A stretch of DNA of 51,130 bases from an uncultured Muribaculaceae bacterium. GTDB lineage: Bacteria > Bacillota_I > Bacilli_A > RF39 > UBA660. Each line of letters starts with the position of its first letter. Position 1 is the first letter of the stretch. Positions 3,409-24,907 of the stretch are shown piece by piece. The stretch is from the NCBI GenBank assembly GCA_964553605.1, contig CAZKKR010000002.1:1-51130 (forward strand), given 5' to 3'. The notes under the pieces are model-generated. The model was not told the DNA's origin. It saw only the letters and a program-made list of their open reading frames with translations, and did no database searches. The translations under genes were made by a program, and so were the position numbers.

Positions 3409-4476
3409 ATGAATAATTTATTAGAATCATTTAAGAGATTTTTCAAAAACAAAAATACTGTAACCATAATCGGAGTAATTGTTATATTGGTGTTACTTTA
3501 TATTGGTTATAGTTCACAAATCAATAAGGCTGTTAATCCAGTTACAGTATATGTAGCTACGGAAACAATTCAGCCACGTACGGAAATAACAAGTGATATG
3601 GTGCAAACTATAGATATGCCTAATATCTCTGTTTCAGAAGACGTACTTTTATCCAGAGATTCAATTGTTGGACGTTATTCTAACATAAACTCTGTAATTC
3701 CAAAGGGAAGCATGTTTTTCAAAGATATGGTTGTAGATAAACAAGATCTTCCTGATGCACCTTTTATGAAATTAAAGGAAGGTAATGTAGCTTATAACTT
3801 CCCTGTTGATATGCAAACGACATATGGTAACTCAATTTTCCCTGGGAAATTTGTTGATATTTACATGAAAATTGGTAATGGTGCTGACGAAAAAGTTATG
3901 ATAGGTAAACTTATTGAAAATGTTGAAGTTTTAGCAGTTAAGGATTCTGCTGGTAGAGCTGTATTTGAAAATACTAGTGAAGAAAGAACTCCTGCTATGA
4001 TGATAATTGGATTATCACAAGATCATTATAATTTACTTATCAAAGCATATTATTTAAGTGATTTAGGTGTAGTACTTTATCCAGTACCTAGAGAAGCAGG
4101 AAGCGCTAATCAAGCTACAGCTTCTACACAAGAACTTAAAGAATATATTGAAGCTCATTCTATAAACATTCAGACAATCACACCAACAAATGATGCTGGT
4201 ACAGCGACTGACAAATTACTTCCAACAGCAACAGAAACTGGTGGTAGTATTAATAAAGTTACAATTACTTATCCTAAGGGCTGTGGAAGTACTTATACAT
4301 GTACTTATTCTAAAGATGGTGGTAAAGCTACTACAGTTAAAAAAACTACGCAAACAATTACTTATACCACTAATGGAACTTTAATTGCGACAGTTACAGA
4401 AAAAGATGGAACCGCTCACACTTTAACTACTAGTGTACCACTTAATGCTAATTCAACTACGGAGAATGTAGGTTAA
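3409..4476 (+). CDS. cpaB: Flp pilus assembly protein CpaB/RcpC-like (SAF domain) with a Thr-rich C-terminal extension
   Basis: N-terminal TM, then VTVYVATETIQPRTEITSDMV...IVGRY...IPKGSMFFKDMV (SAF-like). Further on, PGKFVDIYMK...ENVEVLAVKD...MMIIGLSQDHYNLLIKAYYL..GVVLYPVPR matches the CpaB pattern as I remember it. Lies directly upstream of the ATPase. Confidence 0.75.
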   Translation: MNNLLESFKRFFKNKNTVTIIGVIVILVLLYIGYSSQINKAVNPVTVYVATETIQPRTEITSDMVQTIDMPNISVSEDVLLSRDSIVGRYSNINSVIPKGSMFFKDMVVDKQDLPDAPFMKLKEGNVAYNFPVDMQTTYGNSIFPGKFVDIYMKIGNGADEKVMIGKLIENVEVLAVKDSAGRAVFENTSEERTPAMMIIGLSQDHYNLLIKAYYLSDLGVVLYPVPREAGSANQATASTQELKEYIEAHSINIQTITPTNDAGTATDKLLPTATETGGSINKVTITYPKGCGSTYTCTYSKDGGKATTVKKTTQTITYTTNGTLIATVTEKDGTAHTLTTSVPLNANSTTENVG

Positions 4477-6047
4477 TGGATACTAATTTCGATCAAATAG
4501 ATTTTGGGGCTCTTAAACCTTATCTAGATGACGATGATGTTACAGATATTTCATATGATAATGATGGACAAATACATTTAAAAACATTATCAAAAGGAAT
4601 ATTTAGAGTAGATAATCCAGCAATTAATAATGCTTTTATGGAAAAACTAGCCTTTCAGTGTTCAAATGTTATGGGTAAAACATTTAACATGGCTCATCCT
4701 TTTTTGGACGCTGAAAGTGCTGAACTTCGTTTGGCGTTTATTCATGATTCTGTTTCTCGAAATGGAATCGCTTGTGTTGTGCGTAAAACGCCAGCAAAGA
4801 TTCGACTTCAAAAAGAAAAAATTCTTGCTGATAAATATGTTGAATTAGATATATTAGATTTTTTAGAGCAATGTGTTTTAGGACATTGCAACATGATTGT
4901 CAGTGGAGAGACTGGTTCTGGTAAAACTGAGCTTGTCAAATATTTGGCATCTAAGATTGCCGAAAACGAAAAAGTTATAACTATTGAAGATACTTTAGAG
5001 CTTCATTTGGATAGAATTTTTCCTCATAGAGATATCGTATCAATGAAGACTAATAATATTGCTTCTTATACTGATATTCTTGAGGCTTGCATGCGACAGA
5101 ATCCAAAGTGGATACTTCTTTCGGAGGTTCGTAGTGCGGAAGCAGTTTTGGCTGTTCGTAACTCTATTTCTTCTGGGCACTATATTCTATCAACAATTCA
5201 TGCTGATAAAGCGGCTTCAATTCCAAACCGTATGTATAGTTTGCTTGAAACTAATCAGGATTTGGAACAATTTATGAGCTCTATTTGTAGATATATTCAA
5301 ATTGGTATTTATGTTAGAGGTTATACTGATAAAGCAACTCATAATTTTAAAAGAGAGATTGCGGAAGTTACCGAATTTTACGTAACAAATGATACTAATG
5401 AAGCTAAACATAATATTATTTATCGTAAGGGTGCAGATGGAAAGGTAATTAGAAATAATCCTAGTCCATACTTGATTGATTATTTAGAGGTTCAAGGTGT
5501 ATTTTTACCTAAAGAACTTCAGAATATGGTTGGTGATGATTCGAAAGATAGTGAAGCTCCAGCTGTAGTTCAAAAAGCTCTTAGCGAAGATGATATATTT
5601 GATAATCAAACCGTTACTTTTAATAGTAATGGGGCAAAAATTGAAATAAATGATCAGGTTGAGAAGGAAATTCAACAAACGGCTACTAACGAAGGGCCGG
5701 CAGCTAAAGAGGAAGCTTTAGATGATGAACTTATTAATGAACCAGTATTTCCAACTGCTGATGTAAAACCGGCAGAACCTCAACCAACTGTTCAACAGAC
5801 GCCAGTGCAGACTGTTACGGCACCAGTTAATACTAATCCAGTAAACGCTGCTGCAGTAAATAGTGTGCCAAGACCAGCACCTGTTACGGCGCCAGTTATG
5901 AATGGTGTGACTACGCCTACTGTTAATGCAGTGCCTGGTGCTACACAAAATGTGGCAAATCCTGCTCAGTCAGTTATAAATGTTAACGCACCTGGGGTTA
6001 TTAATGGACAAACAGGTAATGATAAAGTAGAAAAATTATTTGGATAA
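4476..6047 (+). CDS. tadA: CpaF/TadA-family (VirB11-superfamily) secretion ATPase with a ~170-aa low-complexity C-terminal extension
   Basis: Walker A GETGSGKTE, Walker B-like WILLSEVR, His-box STIHA. TAATG stop/start overlap with cpaB at 4474-4478. Followed by two TadB/C-like genes. Confidence 0.85.
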   Translation: MDTNFDQIDFGALKPYLDDDDVTDISYDNDGQIHLKTLSKGIFRVDNPAINNAFMEKLAFQCSNVMGKTFNMAHPFLDAESAELRLAFIHDSVSRNGIACVVRKTPAKIRLQKEKILADKYVELDILDFLEQCVLGHCNMIVSGETGSGKTELVKYLASKIAENEKVITIEDTLELHLDRIFPHRDIVSMKTNNIASYTDILEACMRQNPKWILLSEVRSAEAVLAVRNSISSGHYILSTIHADKAASIPNRMYSLLETNQDLEQFMSSICRYIQIGIYVRGYTDKATHNFKREIAEVTEFYVTNDTNEAKHNIIYRKGADGKVIRNNPSPYLIDYLEVQGVFLPKELQNMVGDDSKDSEAPAVVQKALSEDDIFDNQTVTFNSNGAKIEINDQVEKEIQQTATNEGPAAKEEALDDELINEPVFPTADVKPAEPQPTVQQTPVQTVTAPVNTNPVNAAAVNSVPRPAPVTAPVMNGVTTPTVNAVPGATQNVANPAQSVINVNAPGVINGQTGNDKVEKLFG

Positions 6048-6060
6048 AGGAGGCTAAAAG

Positions 6061-6966
6061 ATGACATTTTTAATATTTATTATTGTTTTGGCAATTACTA
6101 TATTTATTATTTTGTATAGAAATAATAGTAATACTAATAATGTTTATAAATTTATTAATGCTAAAATTAATTTTGCATATGAAAGATTTGCTCCTTATTC
6201 ATTTAAAATTGTTAGAGAAAAGGTAAAAGAACTTGGACAAGAATATACACCTAGACAATATGCGATTCAAATTGTAACTTTTGCGGCTGGTGCAGCAATT
6301 GTCACATATTTATATTTTTATAACATAGTTGTTTCACTTATTTATGCGGTGGTTGCTGTTCTTGTGATTCCATATTTGACGTATTTACGTTGTAAAAGAC
6401 TTTACAGTGAATTTATATGTGAACAAATTCAAGTTTATACAACTAATACTATTATGGAATTTGCCACAACACAATCTTTTGTTAAGGCGTTAGAAGGTGT
6501 ATATGAGTCTGATGTTCTTGAAGATCCTGTCAAAGCTGATGTAAGAGCGATGATTGATATGGCCTATGAAAATGGTACTATTGATCAGTCTTTAGATTAC
6601 ATGAATGCAAAATATGATTTTTACATTGTAAGAAATATGCATCAATTATTCTTACAGATAACTAATGAAGGTTCTAGAGATGCGGGAGAATCACTTGAAA
6701 ATATGAGCCAAGATATTGATATGCTTGTTGAAAGTGTTTATCGTGACCGCATTGATAGAGCTGGTTTCCATAAAAAGTTTTTACAATTCGGTATTATTTT
6801 GTACTTGATGGTTATGCTTGTACAATTTATGCTGGGAATTGAAACTTATAATGAGATGCTTAATGATTGGTGGGTAAGATTACTTTTACACGGAATAATT
6901 TGGCTTAATACGTATTTCTTACTATCAGGTGAAAAATATTATAATGAAGATGTGGGGGCGGAATAA
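6061..6966 (+). CDS. tadB: TadB-like (T2SS-F family) polytopic platform protein
   Basis: RBS AAGGAGG. Topology is an N-terminal TM, a TM pair, a ~130-aa cytoplasmic domain and two C-terminal TMs. Position is immediately after the ATPase. Family assigned by topology and synteny, not by a motif. Confidence 0.6.
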   Translation: MTFLIFIIVLAITIFIILYRNNSNTNNVYKFINAKINFAYERFAPYSFKIVREKVKELGQEYTPRQYAIQIVTFAAGAAIVTYLYFYNIVVSLIYAVVAVLVIPYLTYLRCKRLYSEFICEQIQVYTTNTIMEFATTQSFVKALEGVYESDVLEDPVKADVRAMIDMAYENGTIDQSLDYMNAKYDFYIVRNMHQLFLQITNEGSRDAGESLENMSQDIDMLVESVYRDRIDRAGFHKKFLQFGIILYLMVMLVQFMLGIETYNEMLNDWWVRLLLHGIIWLNTYFLLSGEKYYNEDVGAE

Positions 6967-7760
6967 TGAATACGAGTTTTATATTTATATTTATAGGTAT
7001 TATTTTAATATTTTTGCTCGAATATAATCAACATTTTAGTTCCCGTAAATTCATTCAAGAAAATGCGCCTTATTTTAAGGGGTTAATGGAAGATGATTAT
7101 GAGTTTTTAGTTAAGGTTAAATATTCTGGAGATGTCGATATTGAAAAATTATTTAATCAAAGAGTGAGAAATGGATTAGTAGTAATTGTATTTTTCTTCT
7201 TTATATTTTTAAATAAATTATCATTTGCATATATATTACTTTCATTTTTAATTGGATTTGGAATGTTTAAACTTCCTTATATTTCACTTAAGAATTTTTA
7301 TAAGGCAAATTTACATAAAATTAATTTGATGTTGCCATATTATTTAAAGGGGCTAGAGATTTTAATTCAGCACTATACAGTTCCAGTAGCTTTAGCCAGA
7401 AGTATTAATACGGCTCCAGAAATTTTTAAACCAGGGCTAGAAAAATTAATCGCAAAAATCGATGCTGGTGACTCTAGTGTTCAACCTTATATGGATTTTG
7501 CTAATGAATATCCAGTTAGAGATTCAATGCGAATGATGCGACTTTTATATCGTTTAGGTTTAGGTAGTCAGGAAAATAAACAAGAACAGTTAATGATGTT
7601 TTCAAGAACTATCTCAACTTTACAGAATAAAGCTCGTGAGCAAAAGTATAAAGAGCGTTTAGATAAAATGGAAAACAAAACCATGTTCATGCTATTTGGT
7701 ACTGGTGGAGGTATTCTTGCATTTTTACTTTTGTCAATGATGATGATGATGAACTTTTAA
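6966..7760 (+). CDS. tadC: TadC-like (T2SS-F family) polytopic platform protein
   Basis: TAATG overlap with the previous gene. Topology similar to the previous gene (N-terminal TM, TM pair, soluble domain, C-terminal TM). Ends in a Met-rich helix LLLSMMMMMNF. Confidence 0.55.
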   Translation: MNTSFIFIFIGIILIFLLEYNQHFSSRKFIQENAPYFKGLMEDDYEFLVKVKYSGDVDIEKLFNQRVRNGLVVIVFFFFIFLNKLSFAYILLSFLIGFGMFKLPYISLKNFYKANLHKINLMLPYYLKGLEILIQHYTVPVALARSINTAPEIFKPGLEKLIAKIDAGDSSVQPYMDFANEYPVRDSMRMMRLLYRLGLGSQENKQEQLMMFSRTISTLQNKAREQKYKERLDKMENKTMFMLFGTGGGILAFLLLSMMMMMNF

Positions 7761-7763
7761 ATA

Positions 7764-7791
7764 TTTACAAAATAGAAAATTATGTTATAAT
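7764..7791 (+). promoter_or_regulatory. Candidate sigma-A promoter for the pilin-like gene (TTTACA, 16 nt spacer, TGtTATAAT extended -10)
   Basis: tttaca at 7764-7769 and tgttataat at 7783-7791, in the 57-nt gap before the 7818 gene. Confidence 0.45.
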
Positions 7792-7817
7792 TAAAAATAG
7801 AGGGAAGGTGAGAAAAT

Positions 7818-8036
7818 ATGAAAGAAGCAGCTGGTGAAGCTAACTTAACAGTTGTAGCTATTATTTTAATTGGAGTTGTTGTGGCTGTAGTTACACCACT
7901 TGTATCAAGTTTGATGAGTAACACTGCAAAAAGAGCTTGTTGTACTGATGCGGGAGGTGTTTGGAAAGGTAGTGGTTGTCAAAATATTACTGACCAAAGC
8001 AGTTACACTTCTTGTATTAATTCAACAAAAAAATAA
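7818..8036 (+). CDS. Flp-like small pilin candidate (72 aa), atypical
   Basis: RBS GGGAAGGTGAG. MKEAAG/EANLTVVAIILIGVVVAVVTPLV is a short charged leader ending in Gly plus a hydrophobic helix. The ~40-aa C-terminal part carries 4 Cys (CC..C..C). Size and position (after tadC, before the pseudopilins) fit a major Tad pilin, but the Flp G/xxxxEY motif is absent. Confidence 0.6.
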   Translation: MKEAAGEANLTVVAIILIGVVVAVVTPLVSSLMSNTAKRACCTDAGGVWKGSGCQNITDQSSYTSCINSTKK

Positions 8037-8049
8037 ATTTTTAAAAAAC

Positions 8050-8074
8050 GCTTGCAAACTAAGCAAGCTTTTCC
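8050..8074 (+). terminator. Weak hairpin with T-run after the pilin-like gene (attenuator or partial terminator)
   Basis: gcttgc (8050-8055), 7-nt loop, gcaagc (8063-8068), then tttt. Only a 6-bp stem. Confidence 0.4.
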
Positions 8075-8096
8075 TTTAAAAGAGGGGTGATTAGGT

Positions 8097-8573
8097 TTGA
8101 GAGAAAGTATTGGTAGTGCATTTTTATATAATATAATTTTTGTTTTTATAATAATTGTTTTTGGCTTGCTTTCTGCCACTATCAGTTATTATAAAGGCTT
8201 TAAAGTAAATACTCGAATACTTGCTTCAATTAATAAATTTAGTGGTTATAATGATTTGGCTAATAAAGAGATTGAAAATTATTTATCTAGTATAGGCTAT
8301 ACAGTTAACTCAAATAATGATAAGTGTTCTGCGGACCGAGGCAAAGGAGAATTAGTGAGACCTTCAGGAACAAATTCTCCATCTAATTATTTGTACTGCG
8401 TATATTACATTGCAAATGATAATTCCAAAAGTAGTGTTAAAAGTAATGGAAATTATTACAGTTATGGAGTAAAAAGTTATATATATGTTGATTTACCAAT
8501 TGTCGGCAAATTTAAAATTCCTGTTTATTCAAAAGGCGAAAGAATTTATAGATTTAGTGATTCAAAGGGGTGA
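8097..8573 (+). CDS. TadE/TadF-like pseudopilin candidate, paralog 1 (158 aa)
   Basis: TTG start with RBS AGAGGGGTGA. MRESIG/SAFLYNIIFVFIIIVFGLL leader plus helix. Clear paralogy with the next ORF (YYKGFKVNTRI.. vs YSKAFKVKNYI..; SIGYTVNS vs EIGYRVNS; YLYCVYY vs YQYCIYEF; VDLPIVG vs FDVPIVE). Conserved Cys pair. Confidence 0.55.
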   Translation: MRESIGSAFLYNIIFVFIIIVFGLLSATISYYKGFKVNTRILASINKFSGYNDLANKEIENYLSSIGYTVNSNNDKCSADRGKGELVRPSGTNSPSNYLYCVYYIANDNSKSSVKSNGNYYSYGVKSYIYVDLPIVGKFKIPVYSKGERIYRFSDSKG

Positions 8574-8578
8574 GGTAA

Positions 8579-9046
8579 ATGAAAGAAGCTATTGCTAATG
8601 CCGGGGTGTTTAATTTAGTTGCTATTTTTGTGGCAATTTTGATTGCCTTCTTTATTGGATCATTAGGATATTCTAAAGCTTTTAAAGTTAAAAACTATAT
8701 TGTTAATGAAATTGAAAAGAGTGGTTATGAATCTAAGGATCGAGCAAATATTAACAAATCTATCGATTCATGGCTTAAGGAAATAGGTTATAGAGTTAAT
8801 AGTGGTTATAATAAAATTAACTGTCCGGTAATAAATGATTCCCGCGTGTCTAATGGGGGAAGTGCTTTAAATAATGAGAGCAAATATCAGTACTGTATAT
8901 ATGAATTTGTAACGAAAAATGGACTTAAAGAATCAAAATATTATAGGGTAGTTGCTTATATGTATTTTGATGTTCCTATTGTTGAAGATATAATTCGTGT
9001 ACCAGTTGTTGGAGAAACTGCGTCTTTTACTGATATAAAAAGTTAA
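8579..9046 (+). CDS. TadE/TadF-like pseudopilin candidate, paralog 2 (155 aa)
   Basis: RBS GGGGTGAGG. MKEAIANAG/VFNLVAIFVAILIAFFIG. Paralog of 8097-8573. Confidence 0.55.
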   Translation: MKEAIANAGVFNLVAIFVAILIAFFIGSLGYSKAFKVKNYIVNEIEKSGYESKDRANINKSIDSWLKEIGYRVNSGYNKINCPVINDSRVSNGGSALNNESKYQYCIYEFVTKNGLKESKYYRVVAYMYFDVPIVEDIIRVPVVGETASFTDIKS

Positions 9047-9058
9047 GGAGGATGAAAA

Positions 9059-10066
9059 GTGAACGTAATAATTGCAAATAAATATCGTGATGCTTTAGCC
9101 GATTTAGATGTTGAAGTTATAAAGAAACTAGAGGGTGAATTTACCGTTAATGAAATCATTGAAACTTTTAAGAATTTTTTCTTTCAAAAGATGATTTTAG
9201 ATATTACTGCACTAAAGGATTATAAAAATATTAAGACTTTGCAGCAATTAGCTTTTTCACTAGCTACAGATAAATTGATTTTGCTTTTAGATGGTTCACC
9301 AGAAACATCTAATCCGGAATATTTATCTGATTTGATATCAATGAATATTTATAATTTTACAATGAACGTTGAGGGTGTAAAATGGCTTTATGAACATCCG
9401 AATAGTTATCGTGATGTTGCCCAGTATCATCAATTAGATACTGATCATCAAGCTGTTCAAACCGTAGTTAATACGGCAGGTGCAGCACCTCAAGAATATA
9501 GTAAAAACACAGTTGTTTGCTTCAAAAATGTAACAGAAGGAGCAGGGGCGACTACTTTAGTATATATTGCTAAAAAACAACTCGAAAAAAACTATAAAGT
9601 CGTAGCTATTGAGCTTGATAAACACGATTTTATGTATTATGATGATAAAAATTTAGTTAGTGTGTCAAGTTCTGAGCTTGGTAATACTATTGCTAAATAT
9701 AGCAACATGGATATTATATTAGTTGATGCTAATAAAAGTATTTCAGCTGAAGGGCTTTCTAATGAAATAATTTATTTAATTGAGCCTTCTAAAATAAAAC
9801 TAAATAAATTACTTGCTAAAAACCCATCAGCTTTATCTAATGTTAAAAATAAAAAGATTGTGCTTAATAAATGCGCTCTTACTAATCAAGATGTGTCTGA
9901 TTTTGAATATGAAACAAAATTAAATGTATTTTTCAAATTACCAGCATTAAATGATCAAAGTTCAGACAATAAAGAATTAGACGAATTTTTAGGCAAATTA
10001 GGCTTTTATAAACAAACAGCTAGTGGTACAGGTGAAAAAAAAGGCGTTACGGGACTATTTAAATAG
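9059..10066 (+). CDS. TadZ/CpaE-like protein: N-terminal receiver-like region plus a ParA/MinD-like domain with a degenerate P-loop
   Basis: GTG start with RBS AAGGAGG. VVCFKNVTEGAGATTLVYIAKKQLEKNYKVVAIELD sits where MinD/ParA proteins carry KGGxGKT/S, but the lysine is missing. Position in a tad cluster. Confidence 0.5.
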   Translation: MNVIIANKYRDALADLDVEVIKKLEGEFTVNEIIETFKNFFFQKMILDITALKDYKNIKTLQQLAFSLATDKLILLLDGSPETSNPEYLSDLISMNIYNFTMNVEGVKWLYEHPNSYRDVAQYHQLDTDHQAVQTVVNTAGAAPQEYSKNTVVCFKNVTEGAGATTLVYIAKKQLEKNYKVVAIELDKHDFMYYDDKNLVSVSSSELGNTIAKYSNMDIILVDANKSISAEGLSNEIIYLIEPSKIKLNKLLAKNPSALSNVKNKKIVLNKCALTNQDVSDFEYETKLNVFFKLPALNDQSSDNKELDEFLGKLGFYKQTASGTGEKKGVTGLFK

Positions 10067-10100: not shown

Positions 10101-10130
10101 TTGACATTTGTTTTAAAAAACTGTATATTT
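10101..10130 (+). promoter_or_regulatory. Strong sigma-A-type promoter upstream of the VirB2-like gene pair
   Basis: TTGACA at 10101-10106, 17-18 nt spacer, tgTATATT at 10122-10130. AGGAGG RBS at about 10142. Confidence 0.6.
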
Positions 10131-10157
10131 AATATATAAAGAGGAGGAGTGAAATTT

Positions 10158-10514
10158 ATGGATTTAGTAAATTTATTGGCAGCAGTATCGGATATAGACT
10201 GTGGTGGCGTTAAAATTCCTGGAGGAGTTGCAGGCCTTGTACGTACTGTTATATTTATAATTCAAGTAGTAGTGCCTGTATTATTAATTTTGTGGGGAAT
10301 GCTTGATTTTGCAAAAGGTATTATAGGCGCTGATGAAGATAAGATTAAAGCTGGTCAAAAGAAATTTATTCAAAGACTTATTGCCGCTATCGTTGTATTC
10401 TTAGTCGTAGTGGTTGTTCAATTAGTAATTACTGCTGTTGGTGGATTATCTAGTGGTAGCGATGGTAATGATGCAACTAGTGCTTGGGAATGCGCTAAAA
10501 AAATTATTGGATAA
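10158..10514 (+). CDS. VirB2/TrbC-like two-helix pilin-like T4SS protein, paralog 1
   Basis: ATG 10158 (10 nt after AGGAGG) is preferred over the track GTG 10149. Two hydrophobic helices (VIFIIQVVVPVLLILWGMLDF and LIAAIVVFLVVVVVQLVITAV) are joined by a charged loop KGIIGADEDKIKAGQKKFIQR. One Cys lies before helix 1 and one after helix 2. Confidence 0.6.
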   Translation: MDLVNLLAAVSDIDCGGVKIPGGVAGLVRTVIFIIQVVVPVLLILWGMLDFAKGIIGADEDKIKAGQKKFIQRLIAAIVVFLVVVVVQLVITAVGGLSSGSDGNDATSAWECAKKIIG

Positions 10515-10529
10515 TAAGAGGGCGAGAAT

Positions 10530-10892
10530 ATGATTAATTTATTGTCACAGGCTACTTTATGTAATGGCGTATTAGTTCCAAATGAATTATTTAATATTGT
10601 TCATGTTTTGATAAACGGAATTAAAATTGTTGTACCAATATTACTTATTATATGGGGAATGCTTGATTTTGCAAAATCTGTAATTGCTAAAAATGAAGAT
10701 GATGTAAAAAAATATCGTAAGAATTTTATTCAAAGAGTTATTTCTGCCATTATTGTATTTTTCTTAGTTTTTCTTGTGCAACTTGTTATCAATTTAGTGG
10801 CAAGTGTTGAAGATACAACTAATGATCAGGGACAAACAGTTAGTGATGTTTGGAGCTGTAGTAAGAAATTTATTAATGGTGTAAATAATTAA
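10530..10892 (+). CDS. VirB2/TrbC-like two-helix pilin-like T4SS protein, paralog 2
   Basis: LLIIWGMLDFAKSVIAKNEDDVKKYRKNFIQRVISAIIVFFLVFLVQLVI aligns with paralog 1 (LLILWGMLDFAKGIIGADEDKIKAGQKKFIQRLIAAIVVFLVVVVVQLVI). Same Cys pair. Confidence 0.6.
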   Translation: MINLLSQATLCNGVLVPNELFNIVHVLINGIKIVVPILLIIWGMLDFAKSVIAKNEDDVKKYRKNFIQRVISAIIVFFLVFLVQLVINLVASVEDTTNDQGQTVSDVWSCSKKFINGVNN

Positions 10893-10896
10893 ATTT

Positions 10897-10932
10897 AAAA
10901 AGACAATATTATTGTGCATTGTCTTTTTTTTT
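10897..10932 (+). terminator. Rho-independent terminator or attenuator after the VirB2-like gene pair
   Basis: aaaaagacaat (10897-10907), 10-nt loop, attgtcttttt (10918-10928), T-run to 10932. Confidence 0.5.
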
Positions 10933-10940
10933 GTTATAAT
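10932..10940 (+). promoter_or_regulatory. Extended -10 element TGtTATAAT, candidate internal promoter for the T4SS core genes
   Basis: ttgttataat directly after the terminator, about 37 nt upstream of ATG 10977. No good -35 seen. Confidence 0.4.
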
Positions 10941-10976
10941 GTAAATAGTAGAAAACTATTTAAAGGAGCATATTAT

Positions 10977-11972
10977 ATGAAGAAGAAATATGGTTTATTG
11001 TTTTTATTGTGTTTATTAATGTTTTTTTGCGTGAATATTGATGGAGCACAGGCACGTCTTGATGAAGGCGGAGGGGGTAAAGTTACTAAAAATGATGGTC
11101 CAAAAAGCTGTTTATATTCTGGTACGCTTCCATCATATAGTGTTGATTCTACCAGTTCTGCAGCAGCTATTGCATTAACTTACGATTGTACTTATCCTAC
11201 TTCACCTAAGTGTAAGGCTGAGTATTATGCTGTTAAGCATTCAGAAACTTCATCTAGTGGGACCGTAAAATTTACTTTGGATAATAGTTATGCTTTCGCA
11301 AATGATACTAATATGAGTCATTTCTACAACAATACTATAGGTATTTACTGTCCTGCTTATCTTTATGTGGGAACGGTTTATGATGGTACTTCAGCAACAT
11401 ATAATATGTATTATACTAATGCTACTCGTGCAGCTACTGTTTTTCATTCAAAAACTTTTAGTGGTGATGTTAATAGTGCTGCTGACAAACTAGCCAAAGA
11501 AGGTGGAAGTTCTAGCCGCGGTGATTCTGATAGCACTGAAAATCAAGATATGACAGATGATATAAAGAAACGTGCAAAAGAAGAACGAGAAAAACAAGGC
11601 AATAGCAATATAGATACAACGCAAATAAATTGTTCTGAAGTTTTAGGCGATAAATTTACTACATTTTTAAAATCTGCTTTTTTAATTATATCAGTTGGAG
11701 GAATAGTTCTTCTTATAGTGTTTGCTTCTTTAGACTTTATTAAGGTCATTACCGCCAGTGAAGATAATGCTATGAGTGAGGCATTCAAGAAGGTTAAGAA
11801 CAGAATTATTGCGGTAATAATTTTGCTACTACTCCCACTTTTAGTTAATTTTTTAATAGGAATTGTAAACAAAAGTGCAACGGTAGTCGAAACTGTTGAT
11901 TCTTCGACTGGAAAAACAGTGAAAAAAGAAATTAAAATCGGGAAATTAGACGATTGTAATATTGCTAAATAA
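10977..11972 (+). CDS. Secreted domain fused to a C-terminal VirB2-like two-helix module (331 aa). Candidate minor or tip subunit
   Basis: ATG 10977 (RBS AAAGGAG) gives the signal peptide MKKKYGLLFLLCLLMFFCVNIDGAQA/R. The track start 10914 lies inside the terminator. The C-terminal FLKSAFLIISVGGIVLLIVFASLDFIKVITASEDNAMSEAFKKVKNRIIAVIILLLLPLLVNFLIGIV is a third copy of the 10158/10530 module and keeps the flanking Cys pair. Confidence 0.6.
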   Translation: MKKKYGLLFLLCLLMFFCVNIDGAQARLDEGGGGKVTKNDGPKSCLYSGTLPSYSVDSTSSAAAIALTYDCTYPTSPKCKAEYYAVKHSETSSSGTVKFTLDNSYAFANDTNMSHFYNNTIGIYCPAYLYVGTVYDGTSATYNMYYTNATRAATVFHSKTFSGDVNSAADKLAKEGGSSSRGDSDSTENQDMTDDIKKRAKEEREKQGNSNIDTTQINCSEVLGDKFTTFLKSAFLIISVGGIVLLIVFASLDFIKVITASEDNAMSEAFKKVKNRIIAVIILLLLPLLVNFLIGIVNKSATVVETVDSSTGKTVKKEIKIGKLDDCNIAK

Positions 11973-11984
11973 AGGAGGAATAAT

Positions 11985-14069
11985 ATGTTTAATATACTTG
12001 CGCCATGGGATGGCTTGTTTGACACAGCAAAAGATGCTGCCGGTGAAATAATCACTAATGCGCTTCATTCTATTTGTTTTGCTATTGATCATATCGTTTA
12101 TTCACTTATTCCTAGATTGTATAGGTTGATTGTTTCTTTGGCGAATGTTGACTTATATACGAATAATGAAGCAATTTCGACGTTAATGAATAGAGTTTAT
12201 ATACTTGTTGGTATTTTTATGTTGTTTAAACTTGCTTTTTCTATTATTCGATATATTGTTGATCCAAATTCTTTTTCTGATCAGACAAAAGGTTTTACGA
12301 ATTTAGTGAAAAGAGTATTAATTGCTTTAGTTTTACTTGTTACAACGCCTTGGCTATTCGGAAAAATGTATGAACTGCAAGGTATTATTTTAAATAGTAA
12401 TATTTTACCTAATTTAATTTTAGGAACGAGTGATGATGGAGTTTCTAGTTTGGATTCAGCTGCAATTGATGTTCAATTTTTAGTGTTTAGTCCATTTTTT
12501 ACTGTAAATCCGGTTGGAGAATTGTCAGATTGTGCTTCTAGTGATAATTATCCTTTGGCAAATATTTTAGGTAGTACTGATATGGCTCTTGCGAGTGATG
12601 GTGAAGGAAGTTGTTTAGATGCGTTTGCTAAAGCCATGGACGCTGATGAGAGTGTACAGGCAAGTAATGTGACTATTGAACAGTTTTTTAAGGATGATTC
12701 ATCAACTGATGCTGATACCCGAAGTTTTGGATCTTTGGGAAGTTTATTATATATGAAAATAAATGGAGGAGCAGATTATGCAATAAGCTATTTGCCTATC
12801 GTTTCTACAATTTGTGGTGGTTATTTAGTGTTTTTGCTTTTATCATTTTGTATAGACATAGCTGTTCGTGCAATAAAACTAATGTTTTTACAAATTCTTT
12901 CCCCTATTGCTTTTATTACATCGGTTGATCCTACTTCTTCATCAGGAAATGATAAATTAAAGGACTGGGGAAAAGAGTGTTTAACAACATTTTTATCTTT
13001 ATTCTTGCGTTTAGCGGTTGTGTATATGGTTATTCAAATGGTTAAAGTTGTTACATCAAAAATGTTTAGGGGCTCACTTTATTATGAGGGATTTAAGGAT
13101 AATGCTAATTCAGCAATGAACATATTTGTTTATATTTTCTTAGTTTTAGGTGCTTTCCAAGTAGCTAAAAAAATACCAGATTTGCTTGAAAAAGCTCTTG
13201 GTATAAAGATGAGTGGAGAATTGAGTATGAACCCATTTAAAAACAGTTTTGTTGCTGGAGCTGCAGGAGCTGCTGCTGGTTTTGGCCTTGCTGGTGTGGG
13301 TTCAGGACTTGCCAATATGTGGGCTTTTGGCGCAAATACTACTAACAGATTAAAACAATTTAAAGAAGATGGTGGAGTTCAAGCACTTGCGGGAAGCGCA
13401 AAAACTTATGGAGATGCTTGGAAGTTCAATTTGGAAACAATCAAAGATGTTAAGAATGTTGATGGCTTTAGAAATAAAATTGGTCATTTAAGAGCAGGTT
13501 TTCAATTATCTAAGGAGCAGCGAAGATCAACTGCAATAGGAAAAGCTTTACATGGAGTAGCACAAACTATGTCTTCAGCTGGTGGAATTGTTACTGGGGC
13601 TGCCTCAGGAGCTGCCAGAGGAACAGTTTCAAGCTATGGTAAAAAAGGTAAAGATATTATGCATTCAGCAGGCAGTGCTGTAAATAGAGTGACAGATATT
13701 CGTAATGATAGAGATAAGAGGGTTGAAGGTAGATTTGAGGGCAAAGATAGTGTGTTCTCAAGAAGACAAGTGCTTAAAGATACAATAGATAAGGCTGCTG
13801 GAGTTAAAAATAAAGATCACGGTGTAGGTCTTGCCGGAGAACAAATTAAATCTAAGCAGCTCGAGCTAAAAAGTTTAGAGTCTCAGTTAACACAAGCCAA
13901 TTATCTTTTGCAAGAAGCTAGAGCAAGGGGAGCAGATTCTTTAACTGTTTCTAATCTTGAACAGCAGGTTAAAGATCTAGAAAAGGATTATAGACAAAAA
14001 GATAAGGAAATTAAAGAGCTTCAAGATGCGGCTAACCAAATACCTGGTTTTGGAAAAGATAAAAAATAG
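11985..14069 (+). CDS. VirB6/TrbL-like polytopic T4SS membrane protein with Gly/Ala-rich and coiled-coil C-terminal regions (694 aa)
   Basis: RBS AAGGAGG. Several predicted TM helices across residues 20-440. AGAAGAAAGFGLAGVGSGL segment. C-terminal heptad-like LELKSLESQLTQANYLLQEA...VKDLEKDYRQKDKEIKELQ. Position next to the VirB3-like and VirB4 genes. Assigned by topology and synteny. Confidence 0.5.
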   Translation: MFNILAPWDGLFDTAKDAAGEIITNALHSICFAIDHIVYSLIPRLYRLIVSLANVDLYTNNEAISTLMNRVYILVGIFMLFKLAFSIIRYIVDPNSFSDQTKGFTNLVKRVLIALVLLVTTPWLFGKMYELQGIILNSNILPNLILGTSDDGVSSLDSAAIDVQFLVFSPFFTVNPVGELSDCASSDNYPLANILGSTDMALASDGEGSCLDAFAKAMDADESVQASNVTIEQFFKDDSSTDADTRSFGSLGSLLYMKINGGADYAISYLPIVSTICGGYLVFLLLSFCIDIAVRAIKLMFLQILSPIAFITSVDPTSSSGNDKLKDWGKECLTTFLSLFLRLAVVYMVIQMVKVVTSKMFRGSLYYEGFKDNANSAMNIFVYIFLVLGAFQVAKKIPDLLEKALGIKMSGELSMNPFKNSFVAGAAGAAAGFGLAGVGSGLANMWAFGANTTNRLKQFKEDGGVQALAGSAKTYGDAWKFNLETIKDVKNVDGFRNKIGHLRAGFQLSKEQRRSTAIGKALHGVAQTMSSAGGIVTGAASGAARGTVSSYGKKGKDIMHSAGSAVNRVTDIRNDRDKRVEGRFEGKDSVFSRRQVLKDTIDKAAGVKNKDHGVGLAGEQIKSKQLELKSLESQLTQANYLLQEARARGADSLTVSNLEQQVKDLEKDYRQKDKEIKELQDAANQIPGFGKDKK

Positions 14070-14083
14070 AGAGGGGTTAAATT

Positions 14084-14398
14084 ATGAACTTTTTAATACC
14101 AGCCAATTCAAAAAAATCAATGTTAATATTTGGGGTTTTTGATATGTTTGATTTAATTTTATTTGCTAGTGGAATTGGGATATCATTAATATTATTATTA
14201 ATAATAAGTCCCTCTTCATTGCTTGGAGCTATAATTGATGTTACTCCAGCACTAGTTTGTGGTTTTCTGGTACTTCCGATACCTAATTATCGGAATACTA
14301 GAATATTAATTAGAGAGGCGTATAGATTTTATACACGAAGGGAAAAATTTGTTTGGAAAGGTTGGTGTGTGGCTAGTGGCACAAGAGAAGAGAAGTAA
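14084..14398 (+). CDS. VirB3/PrgI-like small T4SS membrane protein (104 aa)
   Basis: IPANSKKSMLIFGVFDMFDLILFASGIGISLILLLII, a second TM and a basic tail. Size, two-TM hairpin and location immediately upstream of VirB4, as for Tn916 Orf17 and ICEBs1 ConD type proteins. Confidence 0.5.
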   Translation: MNFLIPANSKKSMLIFGVFDMFDLILFASGIGISLILLLIISPSSLLGAIIDVTPALVCGFLVLPIPNYRNTRILIREAYRFYTRREKFVWKGWCVASGTREEK

Positions 14399-14921
14399 GT
14401 ATACAAATGATTTTATACCTGTTAGTTCAATAACTAATGGGGTTATTATGTTAGATTCTAATGAAAAAGTTACAGGAATAAAAATATTTCCTAGGAACAT
14501 ATTTATTCTTGATCCTGAAACAAGGAATTTAATTATTAATAATTTAAGAAATGTTTATAATGTAATTGATTATGAATTTTGGATTATTGCGGCTGATAGA
14601 CCAGTTGATATAACAGCTTATTTATCTAGGCTTCAGCTTTTGTATAACTCACAAACCAATCCTGTTAAAAGAAAACTAATAATGGATGATATAAATAAAG
14701 CTAATATGTTTACAACTAATAATGTTGTTGATACGGAATTTTATTTACTATTTAAAGAAACTGATATGGATAGGATACAAAAGAAAATTAGAACTTTGAT
14801 ACAGACTTTTGCAAGTGCAGGGCTTAATGCAACGCAGACATCTAATGATGATTTGAGAATTATTTTAGATAATTTCTTAAATGGTGGACAAACTACTACA
14901 TTTGGGACGGTGATGAGTTAA
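14349..14921 (+). CDS. N-terminal domain of a monoderm-type VirB4 ATPase, encoded as a separate ORF
   Basis: DFIPVSSITNGVIMLDSNEKVTGIKIFPRNIFILDPETRNLIINNLRNVYNVIDYEFWIIAADRPVDITAYL resembles (from memory) the N-terminal segment of ConE/TcpF/Orf16-type VirB4 proteins. 190 aa plus 594 aa equals the usual ~780-aa length. The true start is uncertain (in-frame GTGs at 14367 and 14376). It overlaps the previous ORF. Confidence 0.5.
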   Translation: MFGKVGVWLVAQEKRSKYTNDFIPVSSITNGVIMLDSNEKVTGIKIFPRNIFILDPETRNLIINNLRNVYNVIDYEFWIIAADRPVDITAYLSRLQLLYNSQTNPVKRKLIMDDINKANMFTTNNVVDTEFYLLFKETDMDRIQKKIRTLIQTFASAGLNATQTSNDDLRIILDNFLNGGQTTTFGTVMS

Positions 14922-16705
14922 TGGATATTAAGACACAAATTGCTCCTAAGGGGTTAGAGTTTAAACCAGATGGTTTTGTATCAAGTGATAAACATTCAAC
15001 AATATTAACTGTTATATCTTATCCAAAAGTTATTAGTCCAGGTTTTTTAGCTAATTTAACTAGTATGGCAGGAATTAAAATGGTTGCTAAACATTTACCA
15101 CTTCCTTTTGATGTTATTTCTAAGATGATTAATAAAGAAATTGCTGATTTAAAAGTGCGTTATCAAGAGGAACATGATTTAACTATTCAAGAAAAGATTC
15201 GTCAGGATTATGAATCTTTAGAAGCTTTTATTAAACAACTTGCAGCCAGTCAGTCTAAAATATATGATTTCCAGTTACATTTAATGGTAACGGCTGATTC
15301 ACAAGATGAGCTTACTGCTAAAAAATTACAATTAAAAAGCTATTTAGAGGCTATGGAAATGAAAGCTGTTCCTTTGAGATTTGAACAGGAAACTGTTTTA
15401 AAATCTATGATACCAATTTTTCCTAAACAAGAAATTGAAGAAAGAATAGGAACACCAATTCCAGCTCCTACTTTAGCTGCTATGTATCCATATGTATTTG
15501 ATAGTGTTAAAGACCCAGGGTTATCTACATTACTTGGTGTAGACTTTTCTGGTGGTATAGTTTTATTTAACCAATTTTTGTATCAAACACAAAAAGAACA
15601 TAATAGAAATAATGCTAATATGATTTTACTAGGTACTTCTGGTTCTGGTAAATCAACAGCTGCTAAATTATTAATTAGATCACATATTAGAAACGATTAT
15701 AAAATAGTTATTATCGATCCTGAAGGGGAATTTGAAGATATGACTAGACTTTATGGTGGAGATTTTATCGATTTAGGTAAAGGTGGAGACTTTGGTATGA
15801 TAAATCCACTTGAAGTTATCATAGATGCTGATGAAGACGAAATTAAACAAGGTATGGGATATGCGGTTTTAACTAGATCTTTACAAACAGTAAAGGCATT
15901 TATGAAATATTATGATCCTTCTATTACTGAAGATATTCTTAATGTGTTTAGCGGGGTAGTTCAAGAAACATATAAAAGATTTGGCATTGATTTTAATACA
16001 GATTTTACTAATTTTACATCTCAAGATTATCCAACTTTAAAAGATGTTTATGCAACTGTTAGAGGTAAAATAACAGCAATGCCTGATCAAAATAGAGAAA
16101 GAGATATTTTGGAAAACTTGGAGTTAAAGCTCCGTCCATTAATATCTGAGTTAAGATATTATTTTGACGGAAAAACTACAATTTCTCCAAAGAGTAATTT
16201 TATAGTATTTAACATTAGAGAACTTATGAATGCTGATGAAAATATTAGAAATGCGCTATTCTTTAATGTACTTAAATATGCATGGAGTTTAACTCTTGAT
16301 GTTAATATAAATACTATATTGACTGTTGATGAAGCACATGTACTTTTATCTGGTAAAAATACTTTGGGTGCTGAATTTTTGGCGCAAGTTCAAAGACGTG
16401 CTCGTAAGTATAATACTGGTACTATTATAATTACACAGCAACCAACAGATTTTAGCGATCCTGCTGTAATTACTCAAGGAAAAGCTATATTTGATAATGC
16501 TTCATATTATTTAGTAATGGGGCTTCGTAAGCAGGCGACAGCGGATTTAGCTAAATTAATAGATTTAAATGATAATGAGATAGAGAGTATAAAGGGATTT
16601 ACTCAAGGACAAGCACTATTTGTCTGTGGTAGTAAACGTATGACAATAGATGTCGTTGTTACTGAACAAGAATTAGATTCATTTGGAAGTGGCGGCGGAC
16701 TATAA
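14921..16705 (+). CDS. virB4: VirB4-family T4SS ATPase (C-terminal ATPase part, 594 aa)
   Basis: Walker A LLGTSGSGKST, Walker B ILTVDEAHVLL, RRARKYNTGTIIITQQPTDF. TAATG stop/start overlap with the preceding ORF at 14919-14923. Confidence 0.9.
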   Translation: MDIKTQIAPKGLEFKPDGFVSSDKHSTILTVISYPKVISPGFLANLTSMAGIKMVAKHLPLPFDVISKMINKEIADLKVRYQEEHDLTIQEKIRQDYESLEAFIKQLAASQSKIYDFQLHLMVTADSQDELTAKKLQLKSYLEAMEMKAVPLRFEQETVLKSMIPIFPKQEIEERIGTPIPAPTLAAMYPYVFDSVKDPGLSTLLGVDFSGGIVLFNQFLYQTQKEHNRNNANMILLGTSGSGKSTAAKLLIRSHIRNDYKIVIIDPEGEFEDMTRLYGGDFIDLGKGGDFGMINPLEVIIDADEDEIKQGMGYAVLTRSLQTVKAFMKYYDPSITEDILNVFSGVVQETYKRFGIDFNTDFTNFTSQDYPTLKDVYATVRGKITAMPDQNRERDILENLELKLRPLISELRYYFDGKTTISPKSNFIVFNIRELMNADENIRNALFFNVLKYAWSLTLDVNINTILTVDEAHVLLSGKNTLGAEFLAQVQRRARKYNTGTIIITQQPTDFSDPAVITQGKAIFDNASYYLVMGLRKQATADLAKLIDLNDNEIESIKGFTQGQALFVCGSKRMTIDVVVTEQELDSFGSGGGL

Positions 16706-18314: not shown

Positions 18315-18340
18315 AAAACGTTTGTTTAAAACGTTTTTTT
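18313..18340. terminator. Bidirectional A/T-flanked hairpin between convergent genes
   Basis: aaaaaacgttt (18313-18323), loop gttta, aaacgtttttt (18329-18339). Confidence 0.5.
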
Positions 18341-18842
18341 ATTTTATAAATTTAGGATTGGTTTTACTATTTTGAAAAATGCTTTTCATTTCTTTTTCAA
18401 ATTTTTCTGTTTCTTGTTTTAGTAAATTACATTTTGCTTCTAGACCGACGCTGGTTACTATTTTGCAGTCAAACTTTTTTTTCTTATATGTCGATTTCAA
18501 ATAAGAAATGCCTTGATTTCCATAAGAGTTTATACCATATAATTCTAGACCTCCTGTTATGTCACCATTACTATCGTAGCTGACATAAATTAAGGAGTTT
18601 TGCTGTTCACTAAGTTTTGTTGTTTTTGTTAAAATATGATTATTCTCTAGTACTGTGTAATATAAGTCATCAGTAGGGTCTGTACTATAATTATTATCTT
18701 TTAAATATTTTTCAAATTTTTGAGTATTGACTTTTATTAAGTGTTGATTAAAGAAATAAATTCCTATTATTACAGCGATAATAATAATAAATGTTATAAT
18801 TATTATTCTTACGATTTTTTTAACTTTTATTTCGTTTTCCAT
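18339..18842 (-). CDS. N-terminally TM-anchored small protein (167 aa), unknown function. The only minus-strand gene in the 30-kb locus
   Basis: ATG at 18842 preceded by AGGTGA (the track ORF extends to 18887). MENEIKVKKIVRIIIITFIIIIAVIIGIYFF, then a ~130-aa soluble domain. Confidence 0.6.
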   Translation of the reverse strand: MENEIKVKKIVRIIIITFIIIIAVIIGIYFFNQHLIKVNTQKFEKYLKDNNYSTDPTDDLYYTVLENNHILTKTTKLSEQQNSLIYVSYDSNGDITGGLELYGINSYGNQGISYLKSTYKKKKFDCKIVTSVGLEAKCNLLKQETEKFEKEMKSIFQNSKTNPKFIK

Positions 18843-18902
18843 TTTATCACCTATTATAATTATAGCAGCTATGTAAATTTTATACAATATTAATTTATTT
18901 GT

Positions 18903-23278: not shown

Positions 23279-24907
23279 TATATTATAGGTAAAATGTTAT
23301 GTAAGTAGGAAGGTGATATAGATGGTATTAAAGAAAAAGACATCTATATTTGTATTAATTTTAATTTTGGTTTTACCATTTAAACATGTTTTAGCGGCTC
23401 CAACTAAGGAGTTTAAGAAAGAAACTTTTTGTTATTTGTGTAAATACAAAAAAAGCGATGGGCTTATGTATGTAAAAGAAAAACAATTTTATCGTAAAGT
23501 TGAGCTTTTAAAATCTACATATGGTAACAGTATTGATGAAATTGCTTTGGCTGCATCTGTGTTACATCGTTATGGTACTGATGAAGCTTATAATAAAGTT
23601 TATGAAAGTGATTTTAATGAGGATTCATACAAAGCAAGAGCTAAAGGTTTTTCAAAATTGCTTACTAGTTCTTCAGATGATACTTCCTCATTATCTGAGG
23701 ATGAGTCAAAAGCTGTGCAAGAAAATGAAAAAATAGATTTATTAACACTTGCGGCGATAGTGATGGCTGACTCTAATCATCACGGTGTATATAGCGATGT
23801 TTGTTTTAGAGATGCCCTTGCTGGAAACAGATTAGTAGGAAACGATGAAAGTAGTATTTTTGGTTCTTTATTAAATGCGATTACTTGTAAAAAAGAGGCA
23901 AAGGGAACTAGCTCTTATGAAGGGGATAGCAGTATAGTTGCTGCTGAATCTAACAAATTGCGTCTTAAAAATTTAAAAAAAGTTTGTGAAAATGGTTTTG
24001 TTGGTGGTCTTTATAATGGTATTTCAGATTTAACTGATGAAAAACAAAAGGAAGCCAAGAAAAAAGTTTATGCTCAGCAAATAATAGATTTAGCTAATTA
24101 TTATAAAAAATTATATAGTAAAGATGATTCTAGTTGTAATATTAATATAGCTGGGGCAACTGGGGATTTTGCAAATTGGAAGCAAGCTGATCCTGCTTGG
24201 GGAAGTGTAAATATGGGAGGGACCCCTAATGTTGCCAGATATGGTTGTATGATAACTTCTATTGCTATGCAAATTGCCCGTTCAGGGACACAAATTGGAC
24301 AGTTACCTAGTGGATATACAGAGTTTAATCCAGGGGCTTTCGCTACTAGTTTAAGTAGTCATGGTGGCTTTGCTGCTGATAGTGCCAATTTTACTGGAAC
24401 AGGATTTCAAACAATTGCACCTAATTGGCGTATGATTGATATGGTGGAAGTTAGTTATGCTGATGATAGCAGATTAGCTGATATGATAGCAAAAGAGCTT
24501 TCTGAACCTTATGATGGAAAGTATCAAAAATTTATAATTTTAAGAATACAGGCTACGGGACATCCTCAACATTGGGTTGCTGTAAATGGCGTTGAAAACG
24601 GACATGTGACTGTATTTGATCCTGGATCAAGCGGTGTTGGTAATACTTTGAGCGAGGGATATAGTAATTTAGTTATTAATGGTTATAAAGTGATGTATGC
24701 CACTGATGTTATGTTTGGACAGACCGGGACTAGTGCTAGAAGTACTTGTACAAGTAGTTATGGTACAGGAGCCATTCAGATTCCATCTCCATATGGTGCC
24801 GGTGGTTATACGGTAACGGAAATTGATGTATGGAATTGGTTATATGATTGCCGAAAAGTTTATGATGAATGGATTGCTAAAGGGGCAAAACATGATAATG
24901 GACTTGC
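23250..24907 (+). repeat. Direct repeat copy 2 (about 1658 bp)
   Basis: See copy 1 at 18903-20560. Confidence 0.85.

Follow-up and report, generated by a model that had tools for sequence, protein, structure and literature searches.

The window analysed here is a 51-kb stretch of DNA (51,130 nucleotides of contig CAZKKR010000002.1) in which three successive genes, ORF1, ORF2, and ORF3 (open reading frames; Table 1), encode copies of a small two-helix module inside the gene cluster of a type IV secretion system (T4SS). The modules are T4SS-associated hairpin subunits, related to the Pfam family PF18895 (T4SS_pilin), that carry a conserved pair of cysteines facing outward from the membrane. They extend the pilin-like subunits of T4SSs into the Bacillota, where they lie within an undescribed supercluster of Tad-like and T4SS genes. 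No description of such a supercluster, nor of a cysteine pair in T4SS pilins, was found in the literature.

The three genes are part of a 30-kb block of co-oriented genes. Comparison loci are denoted L002, L004, L005, L012–L016, and L020. Of these, L002 belongs to a sheep-jejunum metagenome-assembled genome (MAG) labelled ‘Bacilli bacterium’, and L004, L012/L013, and L014/L015 contain the module at ~40% identity to the window copies.

Three Paralogous Copies of One Module

The same two-helix module occurs three times, as ORF1, as ORF2, and at the C-terminus of ORF3, and the copies are paralogous. ORF1 and ORF2 are 45% identical, and the last ~115 residues of ORF3 share 26–28% identity with them, with the common motifs L-L-I...L-D-F-x-K...K...R-x-I. 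A hidden Markov model (HMM) was derived from an alignment of 32 free-standing family members (A4) from which ORF3 was left out. Against the six-frame translation of the window, it gave exactly three matches, with E-values of 4.5e-49 for ORF2, 2.7e-43 for ORF1, and 2.7e-12 for ORF3. Since ORF3 stood outside the training set, the third copy is homologous and does not owe its match to a chance resemblance of hydrophobic segments. The original prediction, made from the sequence alone, had described a helix, charged loop, and helix module shared by the three genes with the third copy more diverged, and both the HMM and the identities bear this out.

ORF2 is the most conserved of the three, with 405 close homologs. 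ORF3 has 34 homologs, among which the module is conserved and the N-terminal domain cannot be aligned. For ORF1, the ATG at 10158 lies ~10 nt past an AGGAGG box and is the better start; the GTG at 10149, given in the ORF list, directly abuts the box. The one minus-strand gene of the cluster was considered as a fourth module and rejected, as it encodes a single-pass protein despite weak matches to the same mycoplasma models (Table 1).

When 1.84 billion representatives of 50%-identity clusters were searched with a profile, the module proved to belong to a family that counts 9,328 clusters at E ≤ 1e-3, of which 3,519 remain at E ≤ 1e-10. The family statistics that follow refer to the best 150 representatives of the 9,328 clusters, 147 of which were assessable for cysteines and domain layout. 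PF18895 is the only recurrent Pfam match among these best 150, reached by 49 of them at E ≤ 1e-3 with a best E-value of 5.5e-11, and precomputed PF18895.6 matches are present on ORF3 and several orthologs. The window proteins score 14.1 (ORF1), 22.6 (ORF2), and 24.7 bits (ORF3, E = 2.5e-5), where the gathering score is 26.6. Judged by these scores, the family overlaps or borders PF18895, and the window proteins lie just under its threshold. The NCBIfam model NF045849, which describes the pilin-like Mbov_0395 of a mycoplasma integrative and conjugative element (ICE), gives 16.7 bits for ORF2, 22.8 bits for ORF3, and no match for ORF1, with a cutoff of 40. The recurrent PF18895 link and these weak mycoplasma matches, together with the surrounding T4SS genes, support the proposal that the module is T4SS pilin-like. 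ORF2 also matches phrog_25692, a phage family with no assigned function, at E = 8e-7, and hairpin relatives may occur on phages or phage-plasmids.

Topology and Predicted Structure

The AlphaFold2 (AF2) model of ORF2 is a hairpin of two 35-residue helices spanning residues 18–52 and 56–90, with a mean predicted local distance difference test score (pLDDT) of 75.6. Its open end holds short strands at residues 8–11, 14–17, and 103–105 and a helix at 107–116. The module of ORF3 is modelled likewise, with helices at 219–259 and 265–299, and hydropathy agrees with the models in showing two hydrophobic stretches per module separated by a short charged turn.

Both ends of the hairpin lie outside the membrane, as the original prediction had it. 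The N-segment of ORF2 has no lysine or arginine and the inter-helix region AKSVIAKNEDDVKKYRKNFIQR has seven, which under the positive-inside rule puts the turn in the cytoplasm and the two ends outside. Independently of charge, the N side of helix 1 is placed outside because the paralogs of L004 have cleavable signal peptides that end 2–6 residues before the conserved cysteine (VNA/VTCG, AFA/VNINGCEG) and because a signal peptide and a ~190-residue domain precede helix 1 in ORF3. Domain layouts are in keeping with this arrangement. Among the 147 assessable representatives, 73 are free-standing, 38 have an extra domain at the N-terminus, as in ORF3, 32 have one at the C-terminus, and 4 have both; CHAP and NlpC/P60 domains occur in two members each. 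Tolerance of extra domains at both ends is expected if both ends point outward.

Leaderless members of A4, ORF1 and ORF2 included, begin with M-[DEN]-L-x-N-[VIL]-L before the cysteine, and the leucine is at least 90% conserved. This motif may serve as a short leader or a recognition tag, or it may belong to the mature cap.

The Cysteine Pair

In each copy, one cysteine precedes helix 1 and one follows helix 2, at the predicted positions: C15 and C112 in ORF1, C11 and C110 in ORF2, and C219 and C327 in ORF3. The pair is near-invariant across homologs. Exactly two cysteines are found in 119 of 120 ORF2 orthologs and in 76 of 78 further orthologs. Among the 32 free-standing members, which reach down to 31% identity, the only invariant columns are those of C11, C110, one proline, and one leucine. 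In the fusion proteins, C219 is invariant in their alignment (A5), and the C-terminal cysteine is kept in 34/34 homologs despite the unalignable N-domain. Both cysteines are at least 90% conserved among the 150 representatives, and in 144 of the 147 a cysteine stands on either side of the helix pair; the other three sequences are truncated or frameshifted.

The number of cysteines is equally telling. Short-tailed representatives have, in 96 of 107 cases, one N-side cysteine together with one (41) or three (55) in the tail, where three typically follow the spacing C-x2-C-x5-8-C. As the tail number is odd, one tail cysteine needs a partner outside the tail, and the N-segment supplies it. Odd totals for whole proteins mostly reflect cysteines within signal peptides or transmembrane segments, or truncation. 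Even counts are also found elsewhere, in the mature part of ORF3 (4 + 2), its L002 counterpart (4 + 2), the L002 copy of ORF1 (3 + 1), and the Flp-like and minor pilins encoded in this cluster, when only their exposed parts are counted. This even pattern, a signature of disulfide-bonded exported proteins, favours a link between the N-segment and the C-tail. The pair probably forms a disulfide, a view that draws on conservation and parity and not on geometry.

The N-side cysteine was also considered as a lipoprotein cysteine. This was rejected, as the preceding residues form no lipobox and ORF1 and ORF2 lack a signal peptide. In L020, a thioredoxin/PedC-like gene (7683–8102, minus strand) lies two genes upstream of the pilin-like gene; its product could act as the oxidoreductase for the cysteine pair, and it is a single case.

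Proposed Mechanism and Alternatives

The evidence leans toward a reading in which the modules are paralogous hairpin subunits of a Gram-positive (monoderm, MPF-FATA-like) T4SS, from a family bordering PF18895, with their ends stapled by a disulfide on the outside. Each module would have two ~35-residue helices, a lysine- and arginine-rich turn in the cytoplasm, and a short N-segment and C-tail outside the membrane. Most likely, the cysteines of the N-segment and the C-tail would be joined in a disulfide, stapling the free ends on the outer face, and members with three tail cysteines would form a second disulfide within the tail. Oxidation would thereby take the place of the head-to-tail cyclisation known from T-pilin and RP4 TrbC. 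ORF2 would act as the conserved core subunit, with ORF1 as a fast-evolving variant. The module of ORF3 would anchor it in the membrane or in a fibre, so that its exported, hypervariable, beta-rich domain is shown at the cell surface. Recruited by the adjacent VirB6-like protein, the subunits would assemble into a pilus or into a short wall-spanning conduit.

Several observations weigh against stapled pilin-like subunits. All three window proteins fall short of the PF18895 gathering score. Neither they nor the 150 representatives match PF04956 (VirB2/TrbC). Comparison of A4 by hhalign with an Agrobacterium/Acetobacter/Acidiphilium VirB2 alignment, a shallow one of 3 sequences from annotated VirB2/TrbC genes of Ti-type, Acetobacter, and Acidiphilium plasmids, gave a probability of 0.2%. 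The original prediction had named the modules VirB2-like, and direct kinship with VirB2/TrbC is not detectable in these two comparisons. A profile search of all PDB sequences returned nothing beyond one spurious designed-repeat match, and Foldseek with the ORF2 model against the PDB returned only non-significant helical hairpins, with a Pyrobaculum conjugative pilin at rank 7 (E = 4.9). Confidence in the ORF2 model is itself moderate, averaging 75.6 and falling to 60–66 in the tails. The N-segments of ORF1 and ORF2 are only 11–15 residues long and lack a signal peptide, which means that their export is assumed. With regard to the disulfide, no thioredoxin, DsbA, or VKOR gene for a thiol–disulfide oxidoreductase was found in the window or upstream, and the host is presumably a gut anaerobe. 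A pilus has been shown for no Bacillota T4SS (PMC12857230).

Gram-positive T4SSs outside the Patescibacteria are not known to form pili at all (PMC12857230), which suits a possible but more doubtful explanation: that the modules are T4SS channel subunits that stay in the membrane and are not fibre pilins. The cysteine pair would then steady an extracytoplasmic cap, and the fusion would be an anchored surface protein. The precedent is pCF10, where the 75-residue, two-helix PrgF is encoded just upstream of PrgH (VirB6-like), PrgI (VirB3-like), and PrgJ (VirB4) and aligns end to end with the module; moreover, the complete-looking Tad-like pilus locus next door could provide adhesion. The PrgF alignment, however, scores only 4.4 bits in a comparison of the family HMM with PrgD–PrgM that gave no significant match, and PrgF has neither cysteines nor outer segments. 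Profile links recur to one family only, and that family is named for pilins, and the ~35-residue helices exceed what a bilayer needs. The divergent paralog arrays also look more like pilin arrays than fixed channel subunits, as do the display domains that 74 of 147 representatives have at the N- or C-terminus.

The position and parity of the cysteines would equally fit bonds between chains, in which the N-side cysteine of one subunit joins the tail cysteine of its neighbour to yield a covalent polymer, a functional parallel to the sortase pili of Gram-positive bacteria. Both cysteines lie on the same outer side, and one N-side cysteine with an odd number in the tail satisfies an interchain bond as well as an intrachain one. 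The AF2 model, at a confidence of only 60–74 there, places the small N- and C-terminal strands of one chain adjacent at the open end of the hairpin, which favours the intrachain bond; the covalent polymer is an unlikely reading. It is hardly credible that the genes encode unrelated small membrane proteins, such as an MscL-like channel, a holin, or a bacteriocin immunity protein, lying beside a T4SS by chance. ORF2 does have weak MscL matches in Pfam (21.9 bits, cutoff 27.4) and NCBIfam (up to 27.2 bits), as well as the phage-family match noted above. The NCBIfam scores are far under cutoffs of 71–197 bits, no holin or bacteriocin-immunity family is matched in Pfam, NCBIfam, or PHROGs, and the linkage of the module to VirB6, VirB3, and VirB4 genes is kept in every related locus examined. 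The original prediction had named holins and bacteriocin immunity proteins as identities that would speak against it, and the searches returned neither.

The Fusion Protein and Divergence from L002

The signal peptide of ORF3, a hydrophobic stretch after KKK, is conserved across the 34 homologs. AF2 models the outer domain that follows with strands within residues 43–147 and helices within 165–208, at a modest confidence of 64.8. Foldseek with the ORF3 model found no PDB match at E ≤ 0.001, VirB5/TraC entries included, which is a weak negative because of that model confidence. A VirB5-like role had been suggested for the fusion; with an outer domain that is predicted to be beta-rich and matches no solved structure, the link to VirB5 is positional only and the suggestion was not sustained. 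A tip protein, a minor subunit, or an adhesin would each fit the position and variability of the fusion.

Comparison with the L002 locus (window 10158–14069 against L002 8553–12631 as the comparison region) reveals very uneven divergence. VirB4 is 97% identical, ORF2 and the TadZ-like protein are each 90% identical, and ORF1 is 64% identical. The VirB6-like protein drops to 41%. Within ORF3, 23 of the 26 signal peptide residues are identical, followed by 17% identity in the outer domain and 35% in the module. The predicted surface-exposed parts are hypervariable or swapped as cassettes.

Expression Signals

ORF1 and ORF2 had been placed between a near-consensus promoter and a terminator. The promoter-like site holds as a pattern at 11 of 12 consensus positions, and the hairpin is present and weak. 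One further site with 11 of 12 matches occurs in 7.5 kb, in front of the gene for the Flp-like pilin. Taken by itself, the pattern is weak evidence because the total number of promoter-like matches equals that in shuffled sequence. The hairpin was missed by a consensus scan. An extended -10-like element directly after it may give ORF3 and the downstream T4SS genes a promoter of their own.

All three signals are kept in L002, where the -10-like element is identical and two stem substitutions are G.U-compatible. Their retention is weak evidence because the neighbouring DNA is ~90% identical anyway. The layout is compatible with a higher expression of ORF1 and ORF2, which the original prediction had seen as possible high-copy structural subunits, and does not prove it. 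The Flp-like pilin gene is bracketed in a similar way, by TTTACA-16-TATAAT with a TG extension (7764–7791) and a GC-containing terminator hairpin (8050–8068), which mirrors ORF1 and ORF2.

Gene Neighborhood and Genomic Setting

Table 1. Features of the window around the three pilin-like genes.
Feature	Position	Strand	Description
Tad-like pilus locus	3409..10066	+	directly upstream of ORF1
Promoter-like site	10101..10129	+	TTGACA-17-TATATT; upstream of ORF1/ORF2; 11/12 consensus positions; pattern only
ORF1	10158..10514	+	118 aa; free-standing two-helix pilin-like module; no signal peptide; Cys15, Cys112
ORF2	10530..10892	+	120 aa; free-standing two-helix pilin-like module; Cys11, Cys110
Terminator-like hairpin and U-run	10897..10932	+	AT-rich 11-bp stem (10897-10907, 10918-10928); weak, free energy (dG) -8.2 kcal/mol, z -2.5
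Extended -10-like element	10932..10940	+	TGTTATAAT; directly after hairpin, 37 nt before ORF3 start; pattern only
ORF3	10977..11972	+	331 aa; signal peptide, outer domain, and C-terminal pilin-like module
ORF3 signal peptide	10977..11054	+	residues 1-26, MKKKYGLLFLLCLLMFFCVNIDGAQA
ORF3 extracytoplasmic domain	11055..11621	+	residues 27-215; predicted beta-rich; four Cys; hypervariable
ORF3 C-terminal pilin-like module	11622..11972	+	residues 216-331; Cys219, Cys327
VirB6-like polytopic membrane protein	11985..14069	+	694 aa; weak pLS20_p028, MMCAP2_0566, and Mbov_0396 matches
VirB3/PrgI-like gene	14084-14398	+	104 aa; VirB4_plasma model positions 3-76
VirB4 N-domain (TraC-like) gene	14349-14921	+	190 aa; VirB4_plasma model positions 98-276
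VirB4 ATPase gene	14921-16705	+	594 aa; VirB4_plasma model positions 295-891
Single-pass membrane protein	18339-18887	-	~170 aa; weak MMCAP2_0566/Mbov_0396 matches; kept in L002 and L005
Two ~1,170-aa proteins in T4SS block	18975-22469; 23322-26837		weak Peptidase_S11 (D-Ala-D-Ala carboxypeptidase-like); second also C39-like
VirD4-type coupling protein	27824..30088	+	T4SS-DNA_transf E 4.7e-59; conju_CD1115 310 bits, cutoff 250

The pilin-like genes are followed by a VirB6-like gene, whose counterparts in L004 and L014 carry TrbL_4, and by a VirB4 that is divided over three ORFs. Together these span the 894-position mycoplasma VirB4 model (NCBIfam VirB4_plasma), and the Mbov_0397 model is the best match of the VirB4 pieces (E = 1.4e-99). 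The same division into PrgI_like, TraC-like, and ATPase genes is found in L004, L012, and L014 and in every related locus, and it is therefore a natural arrangement and no sign of decay or of a pseudogene. A gene for an NlpC/P60-like hydrolase lies downstream of the VirB4 ATPase gene. The two ~1,170-residue proteins may be wall-remodelling factors or effectors, and their place is taken in related loci by M23, CHAP, SpoIID, or C39_2 proteins. The coupling protein scores as a full member of the CD1115 family.

The Tad-like locus encodes an RcpC/CpaB protein, a T2SSE/TadA ATPase, two polytopic membrane proteins, a 72-residue Flp-like pilin with four cysteines, two minor-pilin-like proteins with the common N-terminus MKE[AS]xG, and a TadZ-like protein of 335 residues that was assigned by reading its sequence, without a profile match. 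No prepilin peptidase was recognised in this locus. The order of Tad genes, pilin array, and VirB6/B3/B4 genes recurs in the window's own metagenomic contigs from ruminant gut and in L002, L004, L012/L013, and L014/L015, with arrays of 1 to about 7 paralogs in related loci. In the distant L020, the T4SS genes are present and the Tad locus is missing.

Neither a relaxase nor an integrase gene was found in the window or in the 7 kb upstream, which end at scpA–scpB. The full cluster measures 40 kb and is flanked by scpA–scpB on one side (L016 1309–9989, upstream of the window) and by rmuC, RNase R, smpB, and tmRNA on the other (window 30571–35170). At its upstream edge lie an adhesin with a thioester domain (TED) and a protein of 941–949 residues without a family match. 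No integrase, relaxase, or tRNA gene is present at the cluster borders. Searches of plasmids and phages by megablast with a 9.4-kb core gave no match, nor did tblastn of plasmids with ORF2 and one distant family member as queries.

The window has a G+C content of ~30% and contains housekeeping and sporulation genes of Firmicutes, namely those for RmuC, RNase R, SmpB, tmRNA, a DacB-type carboxypeptidase, SpmA/B-like proteins, and a pseudouridine synthase, along with a gerA/gerB/gerC-type operon. Relatives are labelled Ca. Coprosoma intestinipullorum, ‘Firmicutes bacterium CAG:822’, Erysipelotrichaceae MAGs, and Bacilli MAGs, and some of these lie on contigs of 1.4–1.5 Mb. Members of the family come from ruminant gut samples, one chicken-gut MAG, and other metagenomes. 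A scan of a genome collection with the fusion protein, which as a query is poorly conserved, returned 3 loci.

Significance and Relation to Known Systems

That a very large family akin to the pilins of Patescibacteria is linked with T4SS genes in ordinary Bacillota suggests a wider spread of such subunits among monoderm T4SSs than has been assumed. According to a 2025 review, VirB2 and VirB5 subunits are absent from Gram-positive T4SSs, with the Patescibacteria as the sole exception (PMC12857230). The present system is closer to culturable Firmicutes for asking what such subunits do across a thick wall. The cysteine pair, with its 1 + 1 or 1 + 3 parity, is a simple and testable structural prediction, and the staple, if true, would show that the closed-ends design of cyclic T-pilin and TrbC can be reached by a second kind of chemistry. 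The contrast between a VirB4 that is 97% identical and surface domains that are nearly unrelated in two genomes points to strong diversifying pressure on exposed parts, which bears on partner or host specificity.

A bolder reading, which is unlikely as it stands, would have the relaxase-less, chromosomal Tad and T4SS supercluster of these small-genome gut Bacillota build a true VirB2-type fibre from disulfide-stapled, ‘pseudo-cyclic’ pilins with rapidly diversifying pilin-fused surface domains. Such a fibre would serve cell–cell interaction and not plasmid transfer, as a parallel to epibiotic Patescibacteria, whose T4SS and pilin array are essential.

The Patescibacteria indeed offer the closest match in function and architecture, with a VirB2-like pilin array beside a monoderm-type T4SS that is detected by the same Pfam model and is essential in one species (PMC12102498, PMC12857230). 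Shared features are a two-helix hairpin of ~70 residues, tandem divergent paralogs beside the VirB6, VirB3, and VirB4 genes of a monoderm-type T4SS, a chromosomal location with no relaxase nearby, the presence of a type IV-class pilus system, and direct HMM matches for a third of the family representatives. The system described here differs in its host, a Bacillota lineage by its spore-germination genes and by the labels of its relatives, and in the joining of the T4SS genes to a Tad-like locus in one co-oriented supercluster. Furthermore, the window proteins score just under the threshold of a Pfam model that spans the two helices only and not the cysteine flanks. The ‘Pam’ pilus of the Candidate Phyla Radiation (CPR), reported in a preprint, was considered as a match and rejected as an unrelated pilus.

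Mbov_0395 is likewise a small two-helix protein encoded beside a VirB6-like protein (Mbov_0396) and VirB4 (Mbov_0397). The window proteins fall under the cutoff of its model and are not members, and the mycoplasma element is a mobile ICE, unlike the window cluster, in which no relaxase or integrase was found. PrgF of pCF10 from Enterococcus faecalis is likewise a two-helix hairpin with a charged turn, encoded at the corresponding place among VirB6-, VirB3-, and VirB4-like genes and a hydrolase gene, and the coupling proteins of both systems are of the CD1115 family; its size, its lack of cysteines and outer segments, and its non-significant score set it apart. ORF3 resembles the tip proteins VirB5 and TraC in being exported, in lying beside pilin-like and VirB6-like genes, and in having a variable outer domain. 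VirB5, however, is mainly helical and a separate protein, whereas the outer domain of ORF3 is predicted to be beta-rich, matches no VirB5/TraC structure, and is fused to a pilin-like module.

VirB2 and TrbC, like the window modules, are small hairpins in which a basic turn connects two hydrophobic helices, and their genes too lie just before virB3–virB4-type genes. They differ in that there is no detectable sequence similarity, ORF1 and ORF2 lack a long signal peptide, and no TraF-type cyclase gene was seen. The ends of T-pilin and RP4 TrbC are joined by a peptide bond and those of the window modules probably by a disulfide, an analogy and not evidence of homology. Joining through side chains would leave the window modules with free N- and C-termini able to carry domains.

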